Below are positions 755 to 44,107 of a DNA stretch of 64,000 bases, piece by piece. The position numbers and the translations under genes are program-made. Each line of letters starts with the position of its first letter. Positions within the stretch are counted from its first letter, which is position 1. The notes under the pieces were generated by a model that did not search any database, was not told the DNA's origin, and saw nothing but the letters and a program-made list of their open reading frames with translations. Source of the stretch: Candidatus Omnitrophota bacterium (GTDB lineage Bacteria > Omnitrophota > Gorgyraeia > Gygaellales > Profunditerraquicolaceae); the NCBI GenBank assembly GCA_028716245.1, contig JAQUQW010000002.1, positions 293,346 to 357,345 of the forward strand, written 5' to 3'.

Positions 755-841
755 GGTGGGGTGGCTGAGTGGTCGATAGCGGCGGTCTTGAAAACCGTTG
801 TGGGCGTAAGTCCACCCAGAGTTCGAATCTCTGCCCCACCG
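755..841 (+). tRNA. tRNA-Ser (anticodon TGA)
   Basis: Cloverleaf read by hand: acceptor GGTGGGG/CCCCACC, anticodon loop cTTGAaa, long variable arm, T-loop GGTTCGAATC. Confidence 0.8.
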
Positions 842-853
842 AATAAAAATTTT

Positions 854-942
854 GGAGGCGTCGCATAGCTGGTTTATTGCGCTGGTCTCGAAAACCGGTT
901 GGGCGAAAGCCCTCGGAGGTTCGAATCCTCCCGCCTCCGCCA
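854..942 (+). tRNA. tRNA-Ser (anticodon CGA), encoded CCA
   Basis: acceptor GGAGGCG/CGCCTCC, anticodon loop cTCGAaa, long variable arm, T-loop GGTTCGAATCC, 3' CCA present. Confidence 0.8.
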
Positions 943-965
943 ACTAATGTTATGGATCATCAAGG

Positions 966-1304
966 ATGAGAAGAATGCGTTATATACTGATTATTAGTAT
1001 TTTAGCTTCTTTACTCTTGGCACCGATTTGTGGATTTAAGGCTCAAGCCGAAGAAGGGTTATTTTCTTTAACCAAAGATGTAAATTATGATATTACTGTT
1101 CAGCTTTCTCAGGGGATAGTTTCAAAGATAAAGAATGTCCGCGTCCTTGGTACAGTTGAAATAGCAGGCAAGGTATTTCTTGTAGCTGAGCTTCAAAATG
1201 AGGTTAAGGCAGCAAAAAGTCTTATTGTTTTAGATAGTATTAAGACAATCGTGCCGAGCAACACAGCACATGAAACGCTTATTTCGGATAGTTCTCTTAA
1301 GTAA
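966..1304 (+). CDS. small secreted protein, hypothetical
   Basis: 112 aa ORF with N-terminal signal-like hydrophobic segment. Confidence 0.45.
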   Translation: MRRMRYILIISILASLLLAPICGFKAQAEEGLFSLTKDVNYDITVQLSQGIVSKIKNVRVLGTVEIAGKVFLVAELQNEVKAAKSLIVLDSIKTIVPSNTAHETLISDSSLK

Positions 1305-1331
1305 TATTTTAATTTAGGTTCAATAAATTTT

Positions 1332-1416
1332 GGAGAGGTGGCAGAGTGGTCGAATGCGCGCGCTTGGAGAGCGCGTGACTCGCAAGGGTCCCAGGGTTCG
1401 AATCCCTGCCTCTCCG
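1332..1416 (+). tRNA. tRNA-Ser (anticodon GGA)
   Basis: acceptor GGAGAGG/CCTCTCC, anticodon stem CGCGC/GCGCG with loop tTGGAga, long variable arm, T-loop GGTTCGAATCC. Confidence 0.8.
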
Positions 1417-2580: not shown

Positions 2581-3349
2581 TGAAGAAAATTAAAATAGCT
2601 GCATTAGCGATTTTTAGTATTGTATTAATTTTATCCGTAAATAAAGCCTATGCCGGTCTGGATAAAAAACGTAATGAGGCAGGTCTTGTGTATTGGCATG
2701 GTGACATAAACCAGCCCAAGATCGCTTTAACCTTTGACGATGGGCCAAATGAGCCCTATACATCAGAAATCTTAGACATATTGAAGAAGCATGGTATTAA
2801 ACAACATTTTTTGTATTAGGGAAGAATGTTGAGCGTTATCCGGATATTGCGAAAAAGATTGTTGCAGAAGGCCATGTAATTGGAAATCACACCTACGACC
2901 ATCCTTACTTGTTGATCCAATCTAAGGCGCATATCAGATATGAAATTGAGAAAGCAGAACAGGCTATTTTTAAGGCTACACATACCAAGCCGCATTTGTT
3001 TAGGCCGCCTTATGGAGTAACGGATAACTGGATATATCATACCGTTAAAGAGCATGGTTATGTTACAGTCGAATGGTCAGTGACTGGTAACAATGGAGGT
3101 AAAGAAATACGTACCGATGCTATTGAGAAAGATGTTTTGAGCAGAGTAACAAACGGAGCAATTATACTTCTTCACGATGGAGACAGGCTTATCAAAGGAG
3201 CTAATCGCAGGAATATTGTAAGGGCCCTGCCGGTTATTATCGAATCTTTACAGCAGAAAGGGTACCAGCTTGTTACGGTACCACAGCTATTAGGTATTAA
3301 AAATATCAATGAGGCTAAATCTCCTGTAATGGAAACACCTCACCAGTAA
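2580..3349 (+). pseudogene. polysaccharide deacetylase (NodB/CE4 family) carrying a -1 frameshift near 2799-2803
   Basis: ORF 2580..2819 gives the TFDDGP motif and ends HGIKQHFLY*. The next frame continues TTFFVLGKNVERYPD..HVIGNHTYDHP..RPPYG (ORF 2909..3349 and its upstream extension). A single-base deletion joins them into one CE4 protein. Confidence 0.75.
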
Positions 3350-4839: not shown

Positions 4840-4901
4840 ATCTACCTCCTGGTCTACGAAGACAACACCCGCGCAATTCCGCTAAGCGCGGGGTGTCTCA
4901 C
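4840..4901 (-). promoter_or_regulatory. palindromic leader element copy A, in the HK-RR intergenic region upstream of the RR start
   Basis: Minus strand reads ACACCCCGCGCttagcggaattGCGCGGGTGTtgtcttcgtagaccAGGAGGtagatATG; same architecture as the purU and clpC leaders. Confidence 0.6.
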
Positions 4902-7082
4902 CTATTGTTTTTTTGGTAATTCTATAATAAAAGAAGTCCCTTCCATATAGTTTGAAGTAAACCGGATTTTGCCTCTGTGGTTTTCTTCTATAATCCTCTT
5001 TACCACATATACTCCTATGCCTGAGCCGGATTTATAGGAAGTTTTGGTGGTAAAGAAAGGGGCAAATATCTTAGGTTTATCCTCTGCTTTTATGCCTATG
5101 CCGTTATCCGATATTTTTATTATTTGTTGGCCTTGCGTATGCGTTAAGCTTAATCCTATGGCCGGGACAAAGGATCCCGGCTCTTTTTTTGCGCCAATCT
5201 GCATTTTTCTTTCTTCGATGGCTTCATAGGCGTTGTCCAGCAGATTATAAATGACTTCGGTTAATTGCGACTTGATTCCGTATATTGCCTCTTCATTATC
5301 AATTTTTACAGTAAGGGGGAGGGAGGCGGTTTCGTGTTTAAACATTAATAGGTCAGAGGAAAGCTTTACGGCTTCTTTCAGGGAAAAGACGGTGAAGAGA
5401 TTTTCTTTATTTTCTACTTTGGCAAAGTCAAGGATCCCTTTGATAATAGCGTCAGTCCTTTTTACGTTATCCAGGATGGTAGCGGCTATCTCATTCAGGT
5501 ATTTAAATGTTTTATTTAGTTCCGGGTTGTGGTTAACCAGCTTATCGTTTTTTTCTATAAAGTTTCTTACCTCAATTTTTAATTCCCCGCCTGTCAAGGA
5601 AAACAGGTTAAGCCTGTTTTTGATCTGGTGGGCAATGCCGTCAGCCATGCCTCCGATTGAAGCAAGCTTTTCGGCGGCGAACATCCTTTGCTGCGAGTCT
5701 TTTGATTCTTCGAAGAATATGCAATTTTCAATTGCCAGCGCTACCTGCCGCGAAAGAATTTTAAAAACATTAATATCTTCATTAGAATAAGGATGGGTGT
5801 TTGTTTTCTCACCCAGAAATACAAAACCAAAAAGCTCTTCCCCGATTAACACGGGGATAACTATTTTGGTTTTAGAAAGTATATTTGAAGAATTTTTTAT
5901 TTGTTCGGGAGCATTTTCAAAGAAAAAGTTTCCGCGGTTTTCCTTTAGATAACGGATAAAAGGATCATCTATATCAAAACTTTTAACGCATTCTCCGATA
6001 TTAGATTCTCCGCGTATTGATTTTAGTTGATACAAATTGTTTTTCTTATCTTTAATAAAGATCGCGGAGAAATTAATCCGGATTGTATTTTTTAAGATAT
6101 AAACAATAAGTCTTGATAATTTTTTTAGGTCATGTTCGGTAACCATGCCAACCGCGGCCCGCAAAAGTATCCTTTGATAACGGCGTTGTTGAGCTAAAAT
6201 AGCCGATTCGGCTTTCATCTGCAGGAAACGGTAGACCAGCGGTCCTATTGTTGCGAAAATAACCGCAAGGGAAGTGGCGAGTAATCCCGAACCCGTGCGC
6301 TTAAGCACGATAAACGGTATGCCTAGAACAATAGTGTAGACCGCAAGAAATATGCCTGCGCGGGTAAAGACAATTCTTATGTCCATAAGGTGATAACGGA
6401 TAATTGCATAACTCATCAAAAAAGAAAAAATAAGTACTGGAATAAAGCCAAAGGGGTATATCTCTAATCCATAGCAAGGCAGCCAATCTGTTGCCCCCAG
6501 ATAAGCAACAAGTGTCGCAATGAGGACTATTTTATATTGCCTCTTTTTCAGTCCAGCCGCTTTTTTATAAAGATTAATATAGTTTATTAAAGTTGCAATA
6601 AGGGGAATAATCCAATAAATTATAAATATATTTCCACCAATACCATTTTTAAAATAGCGTCCCCAGAAATAATGGTGAACTCCCGATAAAATATAATTGT
6701 ATTTTAAATTAGTTAAATAAAATATCAAACTGATTATAGCGCCAAGGATTACATATTTTCTTTGTTTATTGAGTAATTCTTTGTCATGGCATAAACTAAG
6801 CCAATAATTAGCGATTGAAATAAAACACACGCCCAGGAATTCAAATTTATTATACAACTCTATTACTATCCAATCATATTTTGACATATACGTAAGGCCA
6901 TTGCCAAACAGCCAAAAATTTGCCAGAATTATCCATATTGAAAAAGATATATTTAAGCGTACCTTGTTTTTTAAGCCGACAAATAACCCCAAGAAAATGG
7001 ATATTACACCACTGAGAAAAACAGGTATCGCATAAGGATTCCAAAAGTAATTCTGCGGGTTAAACATCTCTTTTAGCATCAA
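4902..7082 (-). CDS. sensor histidine kinase: N-terminal multi-TM sensor, GAF domain, HisKA, HATPase_c
   Basis: About 8 N-terminal TM helices; H-box GIAHQIKNRL; HATPase motifs DNGIGI and GSGIGV. Confidence 0.8.
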   Translation of the reverse strand: MMLKEMFNPQNYFWNPYAIPVFLSGVISIFLGLFVGLKNKVRLNISFSIWIILANFWLFGNGLTYMSKYDWIVIELYNKFEFLGVCFISIANYWLSLCHDKELLNKQRKYVILGAIISLIFYLTNLKYNYILSGVHHYFWGRYFKNGIGGNIFIIYWIIPLIATLINYINLYKKAAGLKKRQYKIVLIATLVAYLGATDWLPCYGLEIYPFGFIPVLIFSFLMSYAIIRYHLMDIRIVFTRAGIFLAVYTIVLGIPFIVLKRTGSGLLATSLAVIFATIGPLVYRFLQMKAESAILAQQRRYQRILLRAAVGMVTEHDLKKLSRLIVYILKNTIRINFSAIFIKDKKNNLYQLKSIRGESNIGECVKSFDIDDPFIRYLKENRGNFFFENAPEQIKNSSNILSKTKIVIPVLIGEELFGFVFLGEKTNTHPYSNEDINVFKILSRQVALAIENCIFFEESKDSQQRMFAAEKLASIGGMADGIAHQIKNRLNLFSLTGGELKIEVRNFIEKNDKLVNHNPELNKTFKYLNEIAATILDNVKRTDAIIKGILDFAKVENKENLFTVFSLKEAVKLSSDLLMFKHETASLPLTVKIDNEEAIYGIKSQLTEVIYNLLDNAYEAIEERKMQIGAKKEPGSFVPAIGLSLTHTQGQQIIKISDNGIGIKAEDKPKIFAPFFTTKTSYKSGSGIGVYVVKRIIEENHRGKIRFTSNYMEGTSFIIELPKKQ

Positions 7083-19584: not shown

Positions 19585-19658
19585 GCGCCCATAGCTCAAC
19601 TGGATAGAGCACCAGCCTACGGAGCTGGTTGTTGCTGGTTCGACCCCAGCTGGGCGCA
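19585..19658 (+). tRNA. tRNA-Arg (anticodon ACG)
   Basis: acceptor GCGCCCA/TGGGCGC, D-stem GCTC/GAGC, anticodon stem CCAGC/GCTGG with loop cTACGga, T-loop GGTTCGACC. Confidence 0.8.
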
Positions 19659-19689
19659 CTAAATCGTGATCAAAAAACAGATTATCTAT

Positions 19690-20124
19690 ATGCAAGAAGC
19701 TTTAAAAGAAGCAGAGAAGGCTTTTTGCGAAGATGAAGTTCCGGTCGGAGCGGTAATCGTCCACAAGGATAAAATTATTGCCCGCGGCCATAATCAGATT
19801 GAGCGCCTGAAAGACCCCACAGCGCATGCCGAAATAATTGCCATAACCAGCGCCGCCAGTTATCTTGGGACAAAGTGGTTGAACCAGGCCAGCCTCTATG
19901 TTACAATTGAGCCGTGCAGTATGTGCGCGGGGGCATTGGTCCTGGCGCGGATAAAAAACCTGTATTTTGGCTCAAGCGACCCCAAAACCGGCGCCTGCGG
20001 TTCGATAATCAATATTGTAAACCATAAAAAATTAAATCACCGGATTAAAGTTACCGGTGGAATTTTGCAGGAAGAATGCAGTAGTATTTTAAAGGATTTT
20101 TTTAAAAAGAAACGCAAGCAATAG
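19690..20124 (+). CDS. tadA: tRNA-specific adenosine deaminase
   Basis: HAEIIA and PCSMCAGAL zinc-binding deaminase motifs. An in-frame GTG at 19666 is an alternative start. Confidence 0.85.
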   Translation: MQEALKEAEKAFCEDEVPVGAVIVHKDKIIARGHNQIERLKDPTAHAEIIAITSAASYLGTKWLNQASLYVTIEPCSMCAGALVLARIKNLYFGSSDPKTGACGSIINIVNHKKLNHRIKVTGGILQEECSSILKDFFKKKRKQ

Positions 20125-20137
20125 CTAGAAAATTTTT

Positions 20138-20226
20138 GGAGAGATGGCTGAGTGGTCGAAAGCGAATCACTGCTAATGATTCGACCTGAGTAATCGGGTC
20201 CCTGGGTTCGAATCCCAGTCTCTCCG
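20138..20226 (+). tRNA. tRNA-Ser (anticodon GCT)
   Basis: acceptor GGAGAGA/TCTCTCC, anticodon stem AATCA/TGATT with loop cTGCTaa, long variable arm. Confidence 0.8.
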
Positions 20227-24607: not shown

Positions 24608-24680
24608 TCCCCCTTAGCTCAGTTGGTAGAGCGAGAGACTGTTAATCTCCAGGTCCTAGGTTCGAGTCCTAGAGGGGGAG
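24608..24680 (+). tRNA. tRNA-Asn (anticodon GTT)
   Basis: acceptor TCCCCCT/AGGGGGA, D-stem GCTC/GAGC, anticodon loop cTGTTaa, T-stem CTAGG/CCTAG. Confidence 0.75.
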
Positions 24681-30550: not shown

Positions 30551-30580
30551 TTGAAAAAAAATACGATATTGAGGTATAAT
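30551..30580 (+). promoter_or_regulatory. sigma70 promoter (-35 TTGAAA, 18 nt, -10 TATAAT)
   Basis: Read directly; the predicted transcription start falls at the start of the palindromic leader. Confidence 0.55.
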
Positions 30581-30588
30581 AACCTCTG

Positions 30589-30644
30589 TCACCCCGCGCT
30601 TATAAGGAATTGCGCGGGTGTGCCCTTGTGGGCAAGGAGGCGTT
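30589..30644 (+). promoter_or_regulatory. palindromic leader element copy B upstream of purU
   Basis: TCACCCCGCGCttataaggaattGCGCGGGTGTGCCCttgtGGGCAAGGAGGcgttATG: hairpin 1 plus RBS-proximal hairpin 2. Confidence 0.6.
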
Positions 30645-33777: not shown

Positions 33778-34938
33778 TTGCCCCCTTTGGATATGAAAAA
33801 AGTTATGATTATCGGCGCTGGTTTTGCCGGCTTAAGCGCGGCAAGAAAGCTGGCTAAGTGTGCAGGAGGCTTAGGGTTGGAGGTTACTCTTTTTGACAAA
33901 AAAGAGTATTCTGCCTTTCTGCCGCTTATCCCTGACTGCATCGGTAGAAGAATCAATCCGCAGTTCCTCCTTTGTAATATTGGGGATTTTTGCAGAAAGC
34001 TAAAAATAAAGCTGGTTTGTGAAGAGGTCGCTGCCGTTGACTTTGAATCCAAACATGTTGTTACCGCGGCTTCTAATTATGCCTATGATTTTTTAATTAT
34101 TGCCAGCGGCAGCCAGACAAATTTTTTTTCCAATCAAGCGGCGCAAAATTATGCTTATGCTTTAAACAATATAGATGATGCCAAGAAGATTACCGCGGCG
34201 CTTAAAAGCAATAAATTTGAGCATTTTATCGTCTGCGGAGGAGGTTACACCGGAGTAGAGGCCGCCGCTAATTTATGGCTATATTTTAAAAAATCCGGCC
34301 GGGAAAAGAAAATTATCATTGTTGAGCGGGCTGCGTCAATATTAGGGTCCCTGCCGGATTGGATGAAAACTTATGCGTGGGATAATTTAAAGAGTATGGG
34401 GATTGAAATCCTGGCCAATTCAGTTATCGAAGAGATCCAGGAGGATAAAGTCAGGGTTTCCGCAAGGCCGGCATTTGAGAAAGCCATGCTGATCTGGGTA
34501 CCCGGTGTTAGGACCGCTGATTTCATACAGAAGCTGCCGGTTAAAAAGAATCCTCAGGGCAGGATAGTTGCGGATGAATATTTAAGGGTAAACCCGCACT
34601 GTTTTTGCGCCGGGGATACCGCTTTTTTTGGGGATAAAAATAATTTTTTGAGAATGGCGGTCCAGTTTGCCATTAGCCAGGGATCCCATGCGGCAGTTAA
34701 TATAATCAGAAGCATTAAAAACCTTCCGCTTGAAAAATTCCGGCCGCTGGATTTAGGTTATATTGTCCCCCTGGCCAACAACCGCTCCTGCGGCGAGGTT
34801 TTTGGTCTCAAGGTAAAGGGGTTATTAGCGACGCTGCTGCATTTTATGATGTGTATTTTTCGCCTGCAGGGTTTAAGTAACCGCTGGGGTTTGGTCTGTA
34901 ATCTTTTAAATACCGGGCAAGGAGGTGAAAGATGTTAG
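33778..34938 (+). CDS. FAD/NAD(P)-dependent oxidoreductase (NDH-2 / sulfide:quinone oxidoreductase family)
   Basis: Two Rossmann GxGxxG motifs (IIGAGFAG; VCGGGYTG). Confidence 0.7.
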   Translation: MPPLDMKKVMIIGAGFAGLSAARKLAKCAGGLGLEVTLFDKKEYSAFLPLIPDCIGRRINPQFLLCNIGDFCRKLKIKLVCEEVAAVDFESKHVVTAASNYAYDFLIIASGSQTNFFSNQAAQNYAYALNNIDDAKKITAALKSNKFEHFIVCGGGYTGVEAAANLWLYFKKSGREKKIIIVERAASILGSLPDWMKTYAWDNLKSMGIEILANSVIEEIQEDKVRVSARPAFEKAMLIWVPGVRTADFIQKLPVKKNPQGRIVADEYLRVNPHCFCAGDTAFFGDKNNFLRMAVQFAISQGSHAAVNIIRSIKNLPLEKFRPLDLGYIVPLANNRSCGEVFGLKVKGLLATLLHFMMCIFRLQGLSNRWGLVCNLLNTGQGGERC

Positions 34939-41541: not shown

Positions 41542-41567
41542 CACCCCGCGCTTATAAGGAGGAATCA
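41542..41567 (+). promoter_or_regulatory. palindromic leader element copy C (left arm only) fused to the ilvE RBS
   Basis: GCACCCCGCGCTTATAAGGAGGaatcaATG directly after the lolD stop. Confidence 0.45.
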
Positions 41568-42437
41568 ATGAAGATTTATATCAACGGGAAATTTTATGAA
41601 AAAGAAAATGCCAAGGTTTCGGTGTTTGATCACGGCCTGCTTTATGGCGACGGAGTTTTTGAAGGGATCCGTTCCTATAGCCGCCGCGTGTTTAAATTAA
41701 AGGAGCACATTGACCGGCTCTTTGAATCCGCCCAGAGTATTATGTTAAAGATTCCTTTGACTAAGGAGCAGGTGATTAAGGCCGTAGTGAATACGCTTAA
41801 GGCCAATAAATTAGACAATGCTTATATCCGCTTAGTGGTTACCCGCGGGGAAGGTGATTTGGGGCTTGATCCGCGTAAATGCTATAAAGGAGCGACAATT
41901 ATTATTATTGCCGACAAGATCGCTCTTTATCCGCAGAAGCTTTATCAAGATGGTTTAAGTATCGTTACCGTGCCAACGGTGCGCAATTTGCCTGAGGCGC
42001 TTAATCCCCAGATCAAGTCTTTGAATTATTTAAATAATATCCTGGCCAAGATCGAAGCCGGCAATGCCGGATGCGACGAGGCGATCATGCTTGATTCCTT
42101 GGGTTACGTGGCTGAATGTACCGCCGATAATATTTTTGTGGTAAAAGGCGGGCATCTTTACACGCCGCCGCAATGCATGGGTACTTTACGCGGGATCACC
42201 CGGGATTCGATTTTAGAAATCGCCCGCAAAAACAAGATTGCCGCGCACGAACATGTGATTACGCGGCATGAAGTTTATATCTCTGATGAGTGTTTTATTA
42301 CAGGCACAGCCGCACAGATTATTCCGGTGGTTAAAGTTGACGGCAGAACGATTGGAACCGGAAAACCCGGCAAGCTTACGTTTGTTCTGATGAAGAAATT
42401 TAAAGAGTTAACCGCCAAAAACGGAGTAAAATATTAA
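41568..42437 (+). CDS. ilvE: branched-chain amino acid aminotransferase (PLP fold type IV)
   Basis: EGIRSY, VVTRGEGDLG and the class IV catalytic Lys region. Confidence 0.85.
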   Translation: MKIYINGKFYEKENAKVSVFDHGLLYGDGVFEGIRSYSRRVFKLKEHIDRLFESAQSIMLKIPLTKEQVIKAVVNTLKANKLDNAYIRLVVTRGEGDLGLDPRKCYKGATIIIIADKIALYPQKLYQDGLSIVTVPTVRNLPEALNPQIKSLNYLNNILAKIEAGNAGCDEAIMLDSLGYVAECTADNIFVVKGGHLYTPPQCMGTLRGITRDSILEIARKNKIAAHEHVITRHEVYISDECFITGTAAQIIPVVKVDGRTIGTGKPGKLTFVLMKKFKELTAKNGVKY

Positions 42438-42958: not shown

Positions 42959-44011
42959 ATGCAGATCAATGATTTGATCAACCACACCAGCGAATGGCTT
43001 AAAGGGACCGGCCCGAATTCGGATGTGGTTATTTCCAGCCGGATCCGGCTGGCCAGGAACCTCAATAAACTTCCTTTCCCGCATTGGGCCAGTAAGGCGC
43101 AATTGAATGAGGTGATGGAGAAAACCAGCCAGGCGATGTTAAAGATCGAACCGCTTAAAAAATCCACGCTTTTTACGCTGGCGAATTTAGACAACATTGA
43201 TAAACAGTTTTTAGTGGAAAGGCACCTGATGTCCATCGAACATACCCAGAAGACAGAGCAGAAGGCGGTGCTGGTCAATGATGAAGAAAACATCGCGGTA
43301 ATGATCAATGAAGAGGATCATTTACGCGTGCAGCTGATGCAGTCAGGGTTTAATCTTTTTGAGGCCTGGAATATTATTAACGGTATCGATGACGCTTTGG
43401 CCAAGATTTTGGATTACGCGTATCTGCCGGATTTTGGTTATCTTACCGCCTGCCCGACAAATACCGGCACCGGCATGCGCGGTTCAGTGATGCTGCATTT
43501 GCCGGCGCTGGTAATGAGCCGGCAGATCGAGCGGGTGCTGGCGGCAATAGCCAAATTAAGCTTTACAACGCGCGGCCTTTACGGCGAAGGCACGCAGGCC
43601 AGCGGTAATTTTTTCCAGATTTCCAATCAGGTTTCTTTGGGGCACAGTGAAAACGAGATTATTGAGAACCTCAACAGCCTGATCCGCCAGATCATCGAGC
43701 AGGAAACGCAGACCAGGGAGATCATGCTTTCTAAAAGTAAAGATGTTTTAGAGGACAGGATCAACCGCTCTTTGGGTATTTTAAAAAGCGCCCGGATTAT
43801 TACCAGCCAGGAGACGATTGAATTGTTATCGATGGTGCGGCTGGGCAGCGACCTAGGCATGATTAAGGATATCGGCCGGCTGACGATTAACGAGCTTTTC
43901 ATTACCACTCAACCGGCGCATCTGCAGAAACTGGAAAACAAAAAACTTTCATCGCAGGAAAGGGATTTAGCCAGGGCGGAATTGATTCGCAAAAAATTGA
44001 ATTTATTATGA
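42959..44011 (+). CDS. mcsB: protein arginine kinase McsB (ATP:guanido phosphotransferase)
   Basis: CPTNTGTGMR phosphagen-kinase active-site motif. Confidence 0.9.
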   Translation: MQINDLINHTSEWLKGTGPNSDVVISSRIRLARNLNKLPFPHWASKAQLNEVMEKTSQAMLKIEPLKKSTLFTLANLDNIDKQFLVERHLMSIEHTQKTEQKAVLVNDEENIAVMINEEDHLRVQLMQSGFNLFEAWNIINGIDDALAKILDYAYLPDFGYLTACPTNTGTGMRGSVMLHLPALVMSRQIERVLAAIAKLSFTTRGLYGEGTQASGNFFQISNQVSLGHSENEIIENLNSLIRQIIEQETQTREIMLSKSKDVLEDRINRSLGILKSARIITSQETIELLSMVRLGSDLGMIKDIGRLTINELFITTQPAHLQKLENKKLSSQERDLARAELIRKKLNLL

Positions 44012-44107
44012 CACCCCGCGCGGCACCTGGCGCTTATTTGAATTGCGCCAGTATTCGCCTTGTGGCGAAAATTGCGCGGGTGTTGTCTAGGTAGACAAGG
44101 AGAAATC
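44011..44107 (+). promoter_or_regulatory. palindromic leader element copy D (expanded, nested hairpins) upstream of clpC
   Basis: ACACCCCGCGC..[CTGGCGCttatttgaattGCGCCAG][CGCCttgtGGCG]..GCGCGGGTGT TTGTCTAggtTAGACAAGGAGaaatcATG. Confidence 0.6.

Follow-up and report, generated by a model that had tools for sequence, protein, structure and literature searches.

Several families of small repeats and of structured leaders are found between bacterial genes. The MIRU are intercistronic direct repeats of 40-100 bp, in the sense of their operon, which contain small ORFs extending over the stop and start codons of the neighboring genes; they vary in tandem copy number and were first seen in the senX3-regX3 two-component operon. 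The 5′ stem-loops of ompA/aprE type, the T7 RNase III sites, and the insulators of RiboJ type are stable hairpins directly 5′ of the Shine-Dalgarno sequence (SD), which shield the mRNA 5′ end, prevent upstream sequence from interfering with the SD, or do both. REPs have an unpaired GTAG or CGTC tag, are mostly arranged as inverted dimers, and lie near the 3′ end of the preceding ORF, their distance to the following one being variable (PMC3733652). BOX elements are modular interspersed repeats with a variable number of modules and a predicted RNA fold, which affect co-transcribed genes, and their turnover between strains of Streptococcus pneumoniae is slow (PMC3049150). The Correia elements of Neisseria and the ERIC of enterobacteria are co-transcribed palindromes adjacent to genes, with orientation-dependent mRNA processing or stability (PMC3049150).

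The two-hairpin repeat of Omnitrophota analyzed here is apparently an undescribed family. It was found in a 64-kb stretch of DNA (the whole of which is hereafter the window) from a Candidatus Omnitrophica/Omnitrophota MAG. One unit spans ~46 nt and consists of a first hairpin (hp1) directly followed by a second one (hp2). The first (CACCCCGCGC, a loop of 11-12 nt, and GCGCGGGTG) is 30-31 nt long and GC-rich, with 9 bp, one conserved bulged C, and the loop consensus U-W-A-U-Y-G-G-W-A-U-U. Its borders on the sense strand are [A/G]/CACC on the 5′ side and GGTG/T on the 3′ side, and the reverse complements of these on the other strand. The second is a short stem of 4-7 bp, variable in sequence, that ends at the SD. 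The predicted stabilities are ~-14.7 kcal/mol for hp1 and ~-5.5 kcal/mol for hp2. A strict hp2 directly follows hp1 in 113 of 138 copies, against 4.4 expected. A first-pass annotation of the window had described hp1 as an inverted repeat with a loop roughly of this kind; the repeat is indeed palindromic, but imperfectly so, since the CCCC of the left arm faces GGG and one C is therefore bulged, and the loop may be of 11 or 12 nt.

The window contains three full units, one of which is nested inside another, and one half copy, so that 4 of its ~60 genes are preceded by a copy of the repeat (Table 1). The exact 10-mer CACCCCGCGC occurs 4 times in the 64 kb, and a scan of the whole window with the covariance model, filters off, gave no matches beyond these units, the full ones having E-values from 1e-14 to 3e-11. 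The four copies and their flanking genes are as first annotated, and the palindrome, whose second hairpin abuts the SD, is real and not due to chance; the second hairpin before clpC had to be corrected to the sequence of Table 1. Copy 1 is on the same strand as its gene. Copy 3 is probably a deletion derivative, to judge from the AAGGA present both in the loop and in the SD, between which the deletion would have occurred. Copy 4 is predicted to fold into a three-way junction (-43.1 kcal/mol, z -3.7). No intrinsic terminator (GC-rich hairpin and U tract) was called at copies 2 and 4, where hp1 is followed by hp2 and by no T run. The promoter annotated upstream of purU is real, but transcription would not start exactly at the first base of the element: because the promoter ends 9 nt before CACC, the start would fall ~1-3 nt 5′ of it. 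This promoter (GGTATAAT) is also kept in the relative L242, which itself lacks the repeat unit.

Table 1. Repeat copies and associated signals in the 64-kb window (window coordinates)
Feature	Position	Strand	Sequence and remarks
Copy 1, upstream gene end	4902-4904		Histidine kinase stop; copy lies between it and the response-regulator gene
Copy 1, hp1	4866-4895	-	CACCCCGCGC / loop TTAGCGGAATT / GCGCGGGTG; model match 4850-4895, 62.6 bits
Copy 1, hp2	4850-4865	-	TTGTCT-TCGT-AGACCA, one mismatch
Copy 1, SD	4845-4850	-	AGGAGG
Copy 1, start codon	4837-4839	-	ATG
Promoter-like site	30551-30580	+	TTGAAA-18-TATAAT; 11/12 matches; ends 9 nt 5′ of copy 2
Copy 2, hp1	30590-30620	+	12-nt loop TTATAAGGAATT; 49.7 bits
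Copy 2, hp2	30621-30634	+	TGCCC-TTGT-GGGCA
Copy 2, SD	30635-30640	+	AGGAGG
Copy 2, start codon	30645	+	ATG of purU
Candidate scar of a lost unit	34915-34925	+	GGGCAAGGAGG, hp2 3′ arm and SD without hp1; 5′ of DoxX-like gene
Copy 3, half copy	41542-41559	+	Left arm and 5′ part of loop (CACCCCGCGCTTATAAGG), fused to SD; no fold; begins directly after ABC ATPase stop
Copy 3, SD	41556-41562	+	AAGGAGG
Copy 3, start codon	41568	+	ATG of aminotransferase gene (ilvE)
Copy 4, outer hp1 left arm	44012-44021	+	Begins directly after mcsB stop codon
Copy 4, complete inner unit	44024-44069	+	CACCTGGCGC / TTATTTGAATT / GCGCCAGTA; compensated arms; 56.9 bits
Copy 4, hp2 of inner unit	inside 44024-44069	+	TTCGCC-TTGT-GGCGAA
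Copy 4, loop remnant	44070-44073	+	AATT, 5′ of outer right arm
Copy 4, outer hp1 right arm	44074-44082	+	GCGCGGGTG
Copy 4, outer hp2	44083-44098	+	TTGTCT-AGGT-AGACAA; outer right half 15.9 bits
Copy 4, SD	44097-44102	+	AAGGAG
Copy 4, start codon	44108	+	ATG of clpC

Outside the window, a genome scan identified the full architecture in 13 MAGs labelled Omnitrophota and in one low-GC MAG, and metagenomes contain at least 131 further copies. Matches outside Omnitrophota consist of arms only and score at most 26 bits, whereas those in Omnitrophota score 38-72 bits. Hence the family, as far as sampled, is almost confined to MAGs labelled Omnitrophota; its diversity and taxonomic limits are under-sampled because the scans demanded canonical arms. 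The canonical pattern is absent from the viral contigs of IMG/VR, which led us to reject a phage origin. A known RNA family was rejected on the basis of Rfam 15, which returned only tRNAs for the whole window at gathering thresholds, and only noise, far below threshold, in permissive scans of copies 2 and 4. Searches of the literature for the exact sequences and for Omnitrophota/Omnitrophica turned up no pertinent report, and the main paper on Omnitrophota genomics mentions routine Rfam annotation only.

Both stems covary. In 130 distinct units, 98.7% of the cells are paired (83.3% in shuffles and 30-60% in slid controls), with double changes at 13 of the 15 pairs, in an alignment that was built by the covariance model and is thus biased towards structure. 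A scan of mismatches that is agnostic to pairing found 78 two-sided changes giving Watson-Crick or G.U pairs and 20 giving unpaired positions. The nested inner units, which were found by position and not by pairing, still have compensated arms. Wobbles are strand-specific, with 24 G.T against 5 A.C. Covariation was also searched for within the hp1 loop and none was found, positions 2 and 8 being uncoupled. Kissing between the loops of hp1 and hp2 was considered and dropped, since by inspection the AGGU and UCGU loops of hp2 have no partner in the hp1 loop. The types of the hp1 loop and of hp2 are linked (odds ratio 18, p 6e-11). The checks proposed with the first-pass annotation, i.e., further copies and covariation, thus gave the same architecture in other Omnitrophota MAGs and in metagenomes and strong covariation in both stems. 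Its reservation that the element might be a randomly distributed copy of a known REP-like family proved half right: the element behaves as an interspersed repeat, but it is distributed in a strongly non-random way and belongs to no known family.

In 105 of 138 copies, an SD, a start codon, and an ORF come after the unit, and the start codon distribution peaks 24-28 nt 3′ of hp1. A gene starts in the sense orientation in 82 of 122 cases and on the opposite strand in only 5 of 122. An upstream stop codon is found at 0-12 nt in ~43 of 134 copies (~3 in controls), and 92 of the 138 units have a strong SD on their 3′ side, compared with a strong SD in 16 of the 63 background genes. Placement within operons is frequent, as in grpE-dnaK, ribosomal-protein genes, histidine kinase-response regulator pairs, and mcsB-clpC. 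In agreement with the first-pass annotation, position and the predicted promoter place the element on the transcribed strand of 5′ leaders or intercistronic spacers. The few ORFs that span units mostly correspond to the frame of the downstream gene, open upstream, and a putative small ORF before dnaK (MAKVKVSKK) is in fact the C-terminus of grpE. In 68 of 78 cases, sense corresponds to the strand that is rich in G and of leading type, a GC-skew pattern that cannot separate replication-linked from transcription-linked orientation, since the strand bias of genes predicts the same. Copy 1 and 10 other units are on the C-rich strand, yet in sense to their own gene, and the 64-kb window is alone among the loci in having canonical units on both strands.

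The genes downstream are diverse, with 81 Pfam families among 71 genes (dnaK, tuf, ribosomal proteins, pgk, and others). Because these genes are mutually unrelated, they do not constitute a regulon. CIRCE (TTAGCACTC-N9-GAGTGCTAA) and the tandem GGTCAAA heptads of CtsR are the operators expected near clpC and dnaK. Direct reading of the four copies revealed neither, as already annotated, and many of the downstream genes are not stress genes, so these candidates were rejected.

The units come and go between related genomes. Empty and filled orthologous sites could be compared at five spacers in four syntenic relatives (~90% protein identity), which are empty at clpC, purU, and ilvE and filled elsewhere. 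With this and the diversity of the downstream genes, the signal common to stress and metabolic genes that had been proposed at first does not hold. Since close relatives lack the unit at these three genes, any benefit it provides is dispensable. At the ilvE orthologous site, L243 is empty and L244 has a degenerate array. At the DoxX-like gene, L241 has a full unit where the window has positions 34915-34925; the alignment of filled and empty sites makes the latter a possible remnant of a lost unit. There are identical tandem copies and nested arrays of up to four levels, with compensatory arm changes specific to each level; arrayed units are direct or nested and never inverted. Other, unrelated hairpin repeats fill the same spacers in relatives. 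Conversely, certain genes, dnaK, pgk, and argH among them, keep their unit in diverged genomes, with compensatory changes in hp2. The comparison of flanks showed no general target-site duplication, being equal to the control except for three loci, namely L188 and L137, where ~16 nt are duplicated, and L129, which has a tandem duplication. Likewise, alignments of filled and empty sites revealed no target duplication. No fixed target sequence was found.

The interpretation towards which we lean, with some reserve, is that of a new REP/BOX-like interspersed repeat, co-transcribed, selected at the level of the RNA fold, and probably serving as a structured leader of generic type in which the SD stays exposed. 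Units would be gained, lost, tandemly duplicated, and nested in loops on the time scale of related species, as are repeats of the REP, BOX, or MITE type. They would persist in a single niche and a single orientation, from the upstream stop codon or promoter to the next SD, on the sense strand and ending at the SD. Because this is their niche, units should be co-transcribed, a conclusion drawn from their location, a predicted promoter, and the operon setting. As RNA, hp1 and hp2 would self-fold, and selection would keep the fold. Placed at the 5′ border of the translation initiation region, a folded module of this kind would leave a strong SD unpaired and shielded from the sequence upstream. 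Such a generic effect seems the most likely one. The predicted probability that the SD is unpaired is 0.57 for native sequences, 0.42 when the element is shuffled (p 4e-8), and 0.49 when it is deleted (p 0.016), which is a modest predicted gain in accessibility. The unit could also serve as a 5′ or intercistronic stabilizer. Since the loop bases are nearly invariant and the bulge is conserved, hp1 may be read by a protein, which could be the spreading agent of the units or else a factor binding RNA. Given the variety of unrelated genes that the unit fronts and its turnover between related genomes, it does not regulate clpC, purU, ilvE, or the response regulator in particular.

The first-pass annotation had suggested an operator for a dimeric repressor or an RNA thermometer. 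A palindromic DNA operator controlling a regulon would account for the inverted repeat, the fixed spacing of 11-12 bp, and the proximity to promoters in some copies. But the compensatory double substitutions preserve pairing and not sequence, so that the pattern of covariation in the sequences already contradicts this reading. It is also at odds with nesting up to four levels, the strict strand asymmetry, the excess of G.T over A.C, the third or so of units that abut an upstream stop codon inside operons, and the lack of relation between the downstream genes, and we regard it as barely credible. A cis-acting RNA switch or thermometer that gates access to the SD is very improbable. The hp2 subtype UCCUCC-nnnn-GGAGGA does enclose the SD (predicted unpaired probability 0.22, n=6), and 6 of 8 such copies have a 5′ flank with a terminal AGG, a possible competitor for the 5′ arm of hp2. 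But most copies by far, and all those of the window, have the SD outside hp2, on its 3′ side, where it is predicted to be free, which argues against thermometers of the ROSE/fourU type outside this subtype. No conserved core resembles a ligand pocket, the gene set is unrelated, and relatives dispense with the units.

Two further alternatives deserve more weight. A dedicated post-transcriptional system, in which an RNA-binding protein or endoribonuclease specific to Omnitrophota recognizes hp1 with its bulge and loop, is unlikely, if worth considering; it would punctuate polycistronic mRNAs 5′ of the SD, or load or withhold ribosomes, and the next cistron would retain hp2 as its 5′ cap, in a manner reminiscent of the RNase III sites of phage T7 or of intercistronic processing in organelles. 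Loop positions A3 and G7 are near-invariant (96 of 99 loops) in the absence of intra-loop covariation, and the bulged C is maintained through compensatory changes of the arms. The fixed distance to the start codon, the frequent position within operons, and the retention of the unit by the same genes across diverged genomes also fit a dedicated system. Yet the absence of the unit from the same genes in close relatives and the tolerance of decayed or half copies would be odd for an essential processing signal, the 9 bp of hp1 make a short stem for RNase III, and no candidate protein was found. A reader of CsrA type is unlikely because the loop has GGA in only 82 of 140 copies (GGU, UGA, and UGU are common), and a CsrA/RsmA site pair made of the loop GGA and the SD GGA was rejected for this reason. 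More doubtful still is purely selfish DNA without RNA function, whose hairpins would matter as single-stranded DNA for an HUH/Y1 enzyme (RAYT or IS200-like) or some other one, sense orientation and SD adjacency resulting from target choice and purifying selection against harmful insertions. The covariation and the G.T bias could indeed alternatively stem from a single-stranded DNA hairpin needed for mobilization. Selfish DNA fits the presence/absence polymorphism, the tandem and nested arrays, the joint inheritance of loop and hp2 in subfamilies, and the other hairpin repeats in the same spacers of relatives. It also fits the lack of general target duplication, a property shared by IS200/IS605-type and REP elements, and the bias of the sense strand to the leading type, which with co-directional genes points to the lagging-strand template. 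Against it, there are no GTAG/CGTC tags or inverted dimers, units on the C-rich strand are still sense to their gene, and compensatory hp2 pairing at orthologous positions together with a fixed start distance is hard to obtain from target choice alone. A phmmer search with an approximate IS200 TnpA query, which is a weak test, found no Y1 transposase/RAYT among 3011 ORFs (~0.9 Mb of flanking sequence). Finally, with a low probability similar to that of the dedicated system, the units might be the cis-signals of a phylum-specific ribosome-binding-site machinery, i.e., an operon-punctuating protein or nuclease giving hairpin-capped leaders with strong SDs, or else a new mobile element. The latter may find SD-proximal DNA and its own SD-like loops, by structure- or sequence-guided insertion without target duplication.

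In Omnitrophota, which form a large uncultured phylum, the signals of gene expression are essentially uncharted, and a unit that fronts a sizeable share of genes would give a handle on their translation initiation regions. The family is anchored in 5′ and in sense, in contrast with the 3′-anchored REPs, and its recursive nesting with level-specific arm pairs provides a natural test case of how small repeats are tolerated or exploited within operons. The covariance model would aid the annotation of Omnitrophota MAGs, including start-codon calling, the unit may work as a taxonomic marker in metagenomes, and its pattern of presence and absence is usable for strain typing.

Among described repeats, the resemblance with REP/BIME includes a short GC-rich imperfect palindrome, in high copy number, extragenic and probably transcribed, with G.T pairs in the stem, composite clusters, presence/absence between relatives, and no target duplication. 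hp1 itself has the size and form of a REP (an imperfect palindrome of 20-40 nt forming a GC-rich stem-loop). Unlike REPs, the Omnitrophota units have no terminal GTAG/CGTC tag (GT[AG]G is present in 72 of 140 copies, only within hp2, where the loop meets the 3′ arm), they are direct or nested, and it is from the SD and start codon downstream that they keep a fixed distance, in sense, the distance to the upstream ORF being variable. BOX, as well as RUP and SPRITE, are similarly modular interspersed repeats with a predicted RNA fold. However, BOX is made of boxA, boxB(n), and boxC, of ~50-60 nt each, lacks sequence similarity with the units, is enriched between convergent genes or downstream of genes, and shows neither a fixed relation to the SD nor loop nesting. 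Correia and ERIC are also co-transcribed palindromic repeats adjoining genes, but they are 100-150 bp long, with terminal inverted repeats, in both orientations and without strict SD adjacency; Correia elements duplicate a TA target. The fixed-length target duplication that characterizes MITEs, together with terminal inverted repeats, was not found in the comparisons of flanks and of filled and empty sites. MIRU are not hairpin units and do not nest, although copy 1 likewise lies between histidine kinase and response-regulator genes. The 5′ stabilizer hairpins are similar only in their way of working, as they are single-gene or engineered devices and not a genome-wide repeat family of conserved sequence, and processing or stabilization by the Omnitrophota units is hypothetical.

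The element is a two-hairpin unit of about 46 nt in which hairpin 1 (hp1) is followed without a gap by hairpin 2 (hp2). Hp1 consists of CACCCCGCGC, an 11–12 nt loop, and GCGCGGGTG; because CCCC in the left arm faces GGG, its stem has nine pairs and one bulged C. Hp2 opens with a T and closes with an A; between them is a 4–7 bp stem of free sequence whose loop is in most cases NNGU or NNCU. Then comes the Shine-Dalgarno (SD) AGGAG[G], with the start codon 4–7 nt further. The first-pass annotation claimed four copies of a palindromic 5′-leader element, and direct reading finds every one in place; the element is real and also bigger than described, being a repeat family with strong structural covariation and an odd niche at the SD. 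With filters off, R1, a covariance model of the unit, finds only these copies in the whole window (62.6, 56.9, 49.7, and 15.9 bits). The predicted RNA folds match expectation: the nested copy, with compensated arms (CACCTGGCGC/GCGCCAGTA) in its inner unit, gives a three-way junction (-43.1 kcal/mol, z = -3.7). The half copy gives no fold; a deletion between the loop AAGGA and the SD AAGGA could have produced it from a full unit. Long open reading frames (ORFs) of the window are strongly plus-strand-biased (~16.7k codons, vs 4.0k on the minus strand), and its GC skew is uniformly positive.

Unit-bearing sites and neighboring features in the window and at other loci
Site	Sequence	Position	Strand	Content
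Histidine kinase/response regulator spacer	window	4850-4895	minus	copy 1, occupies the spacer
purU upstream	window	30590-30634		copy 2, between GGTATAAT and SD; predicted promoter TTGAAA-18-TATAAT precedes
purU upstream	L242			identical GGTATAAT, then directly AGGAGG; no unit
ABC ATPase to aminotransferase	window	41542-41559		copy 3, half copy: left arm and 5′ part of loop, fused to aminotransferase SD
Class IV aminotransferase protein	window	41568-42437		
ABC ATPase to aminotransferase	L243			empty
ABC ATPase to aminotransferase	L244			decayed multi-unit array
ABC ATPase to aminotransferase	L241; L242	9899-10000; 9896-10000		other palindrome, ~75 nt: GTCATTGCGAG...GAAGCAATC-loop-GATTGCTTCG...CTCGCAATGAC
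mcsB to clpC	window	44012-44098		copy 4, complete second unit nested in loop; 96-nt spacer
mcsB to clpC	L242			11 nt, GGGGACTAACT, empty
mcsB to clpC	L243			17 nt, CTTTTTAAGGAGAGATC, empty
mcsB to clpC	L241	12445-12560		third, unrelated perfect palindrome, TACGGTAGGGGAGGTTTAAACCTCCCCTACCGTA
Pyr_redox to DoxX	window	34915-34925		no unit; GGGCAAGGAGG
Pyr_redox to DoxX	L241	3217-3261		full unit
Pyr_redox family gene	L241	2104-3231		TAA at 3229-3231
ABC to MlaD	window			no unit
ABC to MlaD	L242			decayed unit
grpE-dnaK spacer	L188	~100 nt upstream of dnaK	minus	16-nt flanking duplication
grpE-dnaK spacer	L137	190-285		16-nt flanking duplication
Nested arrays	L195	630-1030; 1400-1680		four levels
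pgk-like gene upstream	L168	~2034-2079	minus	unit
tRNA genes (six)	window	755-1416; 19585-20226; 24608-24680		

Both hairpins are real sense-strand structures. A perfectly paired stem of 5 bp or longer begins at offset 0–1 after hp1 in 113 of the 138 non-identical copies, against 4.4 for shuffles and random genomic positions. Among 130 distinct units aligned with R1, 98.7% of cells are paired (83.3% in column shuffles, 30–60% with slid partners), and both sides change in 13 of the 15 pairs. Two further checks matter because this alignment is fitted to R1. In a pairing-blind mismatch scan against the consensus arms, two-sided changes preserve pairing in 78 cases and break it in 20, with noise included; the variants include CACCCGACGC/GCGTCGGTG, CACCTGGCGC/GCGCCAGTG, CACCCAACGC/GCGTTGGTG, and CGCCCTGCGC/GCGCAGGCG. 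Nested inner units, placed by position with pairing ignored, have their own arm pair at each level. The bulged C is kept through all arm changes. Hp2 has 24 G.T wobbles against 5 A.C mismatches, with pyrimidines prevailing in its 5′ arm and purines in its 3′ arm; therefore the fold is under selection on a single strand. The hp1 loop shows no internal covariation, and its A3 and G7 are near-invariant (96/99 loops); its terminal UU cannot be counted as conserved, because the metagenome search pattern imposed it.

The aminotransferase protein at 41568-42437 of the window is 100% identical to one that NCBI assigns to a Candidatus Omnitrophica MAG. A search with the two arms as query, covering one genome per GTDB species, returned at least 120 loci, which among the matches listed are mostly chance matches in high-GC genomes. 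The full architecture occurs, among these same matches, in at least 13 Candidatus Omnitrophota MAGs and one low-GC MAG labelled Planctomycetales. R1 scores these full-architecture MAGs at 38–72 bits and all non-Omnitrophota matches at 26.3 bits or less. Metagenome contigs add at least 120 loci, with at least 131 canonical copies. As found to date, the family is confined almost wholly to Omnitrophota-labelled MAGs. The unit has no match in Rfam, was not found in IMG/VR viral contigs, and no description of it was found in the searchable literature; the family is apparently undescribed. In sequence not picked for the unit, density is about 3 loci in 74 kb of the relatives, and the 64-kb window itself has 4; by extrapolation, a genome would contain roughly a hundred copies or more.

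Where the unit sits, and how it is oriented, is its most unusual feature. Downstream of 105 of 138 copies come an SD-like site and then a start codon that opens an ORF of 50 codons or longer, with a start codon peak 24–28 nt past hp1. Of 122 cases, 82 have a gene start no more than 60 nt away on the sense side, against 5 on the opposite strand. Approximately one third of copies start 0–12 nt past an upstream same-strand stop codon (control, ~3) and in one quarter the 200 nt upstream contain no ORF end; hence, some units lie within operons and others downstream of promoters. Of 138 units, 92 lead into a strong SD (AGGAG or GGAGG), vs 16 of 63 ordinary genes of the relatives that have one; this SD may be either brought by the unit or picked as target. 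In one subtype (L129, L143, L154, L167, L169, L184, L227, and L233), found before pgk- and argH-like genes, hp2 is TCCTCC-nnnn-GGAGGA, which places the SD within the stem; six of the eight copies have AGG at the end of their 5′ flank. At L168, no SD follows hp2 (...acacaaaATG) and a purine run, AGAGAGG, lies directly 5′ of hp1; given this arrangement, it may be a split SD drawn near the start by the fold.

The genes behind the units have little in common. The 71 distinct downstream genes match 81 different Pfam families, including Hsp70, EF-Tu, ribosomal proteins L16 and L20, PGK, lyases, formyltransferases, response regulators, and lipoproteins, and reading of N-termini adds S8, L6, S6, SSB, ACP, NusA, and Ndk. 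Unit-bearing genes are not a regulon. The unit is not a gene-specific regulator, and the two readings offered in the first-pass annotation, a DNA operator and an RNA thermometer or switch, both fit the data poorly.

Four syntenic relatives (L241–L244), identified through the aminotransferase gene (88–94% identity), show units gained and lost. The ~75-nt palindrome of L241 and L242 is not found within the window, and stop-codon-to-SD spacers seem to serve several hairpin repeat families as landing sites. At the DoxX site, the window has an hp2 3′ arm and SD with hp1 missing, probably a scar left by a unit since lost, because L241 holds a full unit at the matching site. The upstream Pyr_redox gene of L241 ends inside the hp1 loop, so there the insertion supplies the stop codon. 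Identical units stand in tandem at three loci (L195, L205, and L223), and nested arrays reach four levels. In L195, each level has its own complementary arm pair, and the arrays are followed by three identical tandem units with a period of 47 nt. Loop length is linked to hp2 type (odds ratio 18, p 6e-11); this co-inheritance implies that whole units get copied. Comparison of flanks reveals neither a fixed target nor a general duplication at insertion sites, and the nesting point in the loop varies. The sole clear flanking duplication is that of the last 16 nt of grpE (GTTTCTAAAAAATA[G/A]G), present on both sides of the unit at L188 and L137, which may reflect one ancestral event.

Units are nevertheless kept at the same genes across contigs with protein identities of just 42–96% (the grpE-dnaK spacer in five contigs, pgk in four, and argH in three). 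At such orthologous sites hp2 varies by compensatory changes, as in the grpE-dnaK arm pairs UUGUCU/AGACAA, UUGCCU/AGGCAA, and UUGUGC/GCACAA, which is what selection on the RNA fold predicts.

Anatomy, covariation, strand asymmetry, the fixed junction with a strong SD, the unrelated genes, and the pattern of gain and loss are directly observed; what the units do and how they are mobilised is inferred. The units would form part of the mRNA as rigid, self-contained blocks ending at the SD. Such a block would leave the SD single-stranded while shielding the initiation region, and possibly also the 5′ terminus of a transcript, whether primary or processed. The predicted probability that the SD is unpaired is 0.57 for native sequences; shuffling the element lowers it to 0.42 (p 4e-8) and deleting the element to 0.49 (p 0.016), so that predicted folding lends real, modest support to SD exposure. 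Conservation of the bulge and of loop bases suggests a protein that reads hp1, which may be either the agent spreading the units or an RNA-binding factor. Beside SD exposure and shielding, a dedicated processing or loading system and a purely selfish single-stranded-DNA element remain as alternatives.

In conclusion, the unit is a further variant among small interspersed palindromic repeats such as REP, BOX, Correia, and ERIC. REP sequences carry a GTAG or CGTC tag, occur mostly as inverted dimers, and adjoin the 3′ end of the upstream ORF at a variable distance from the downstream one (PMC3733652). Relative to classical REP, the fixed side is reversed here, with a constant distance to the downstream start.
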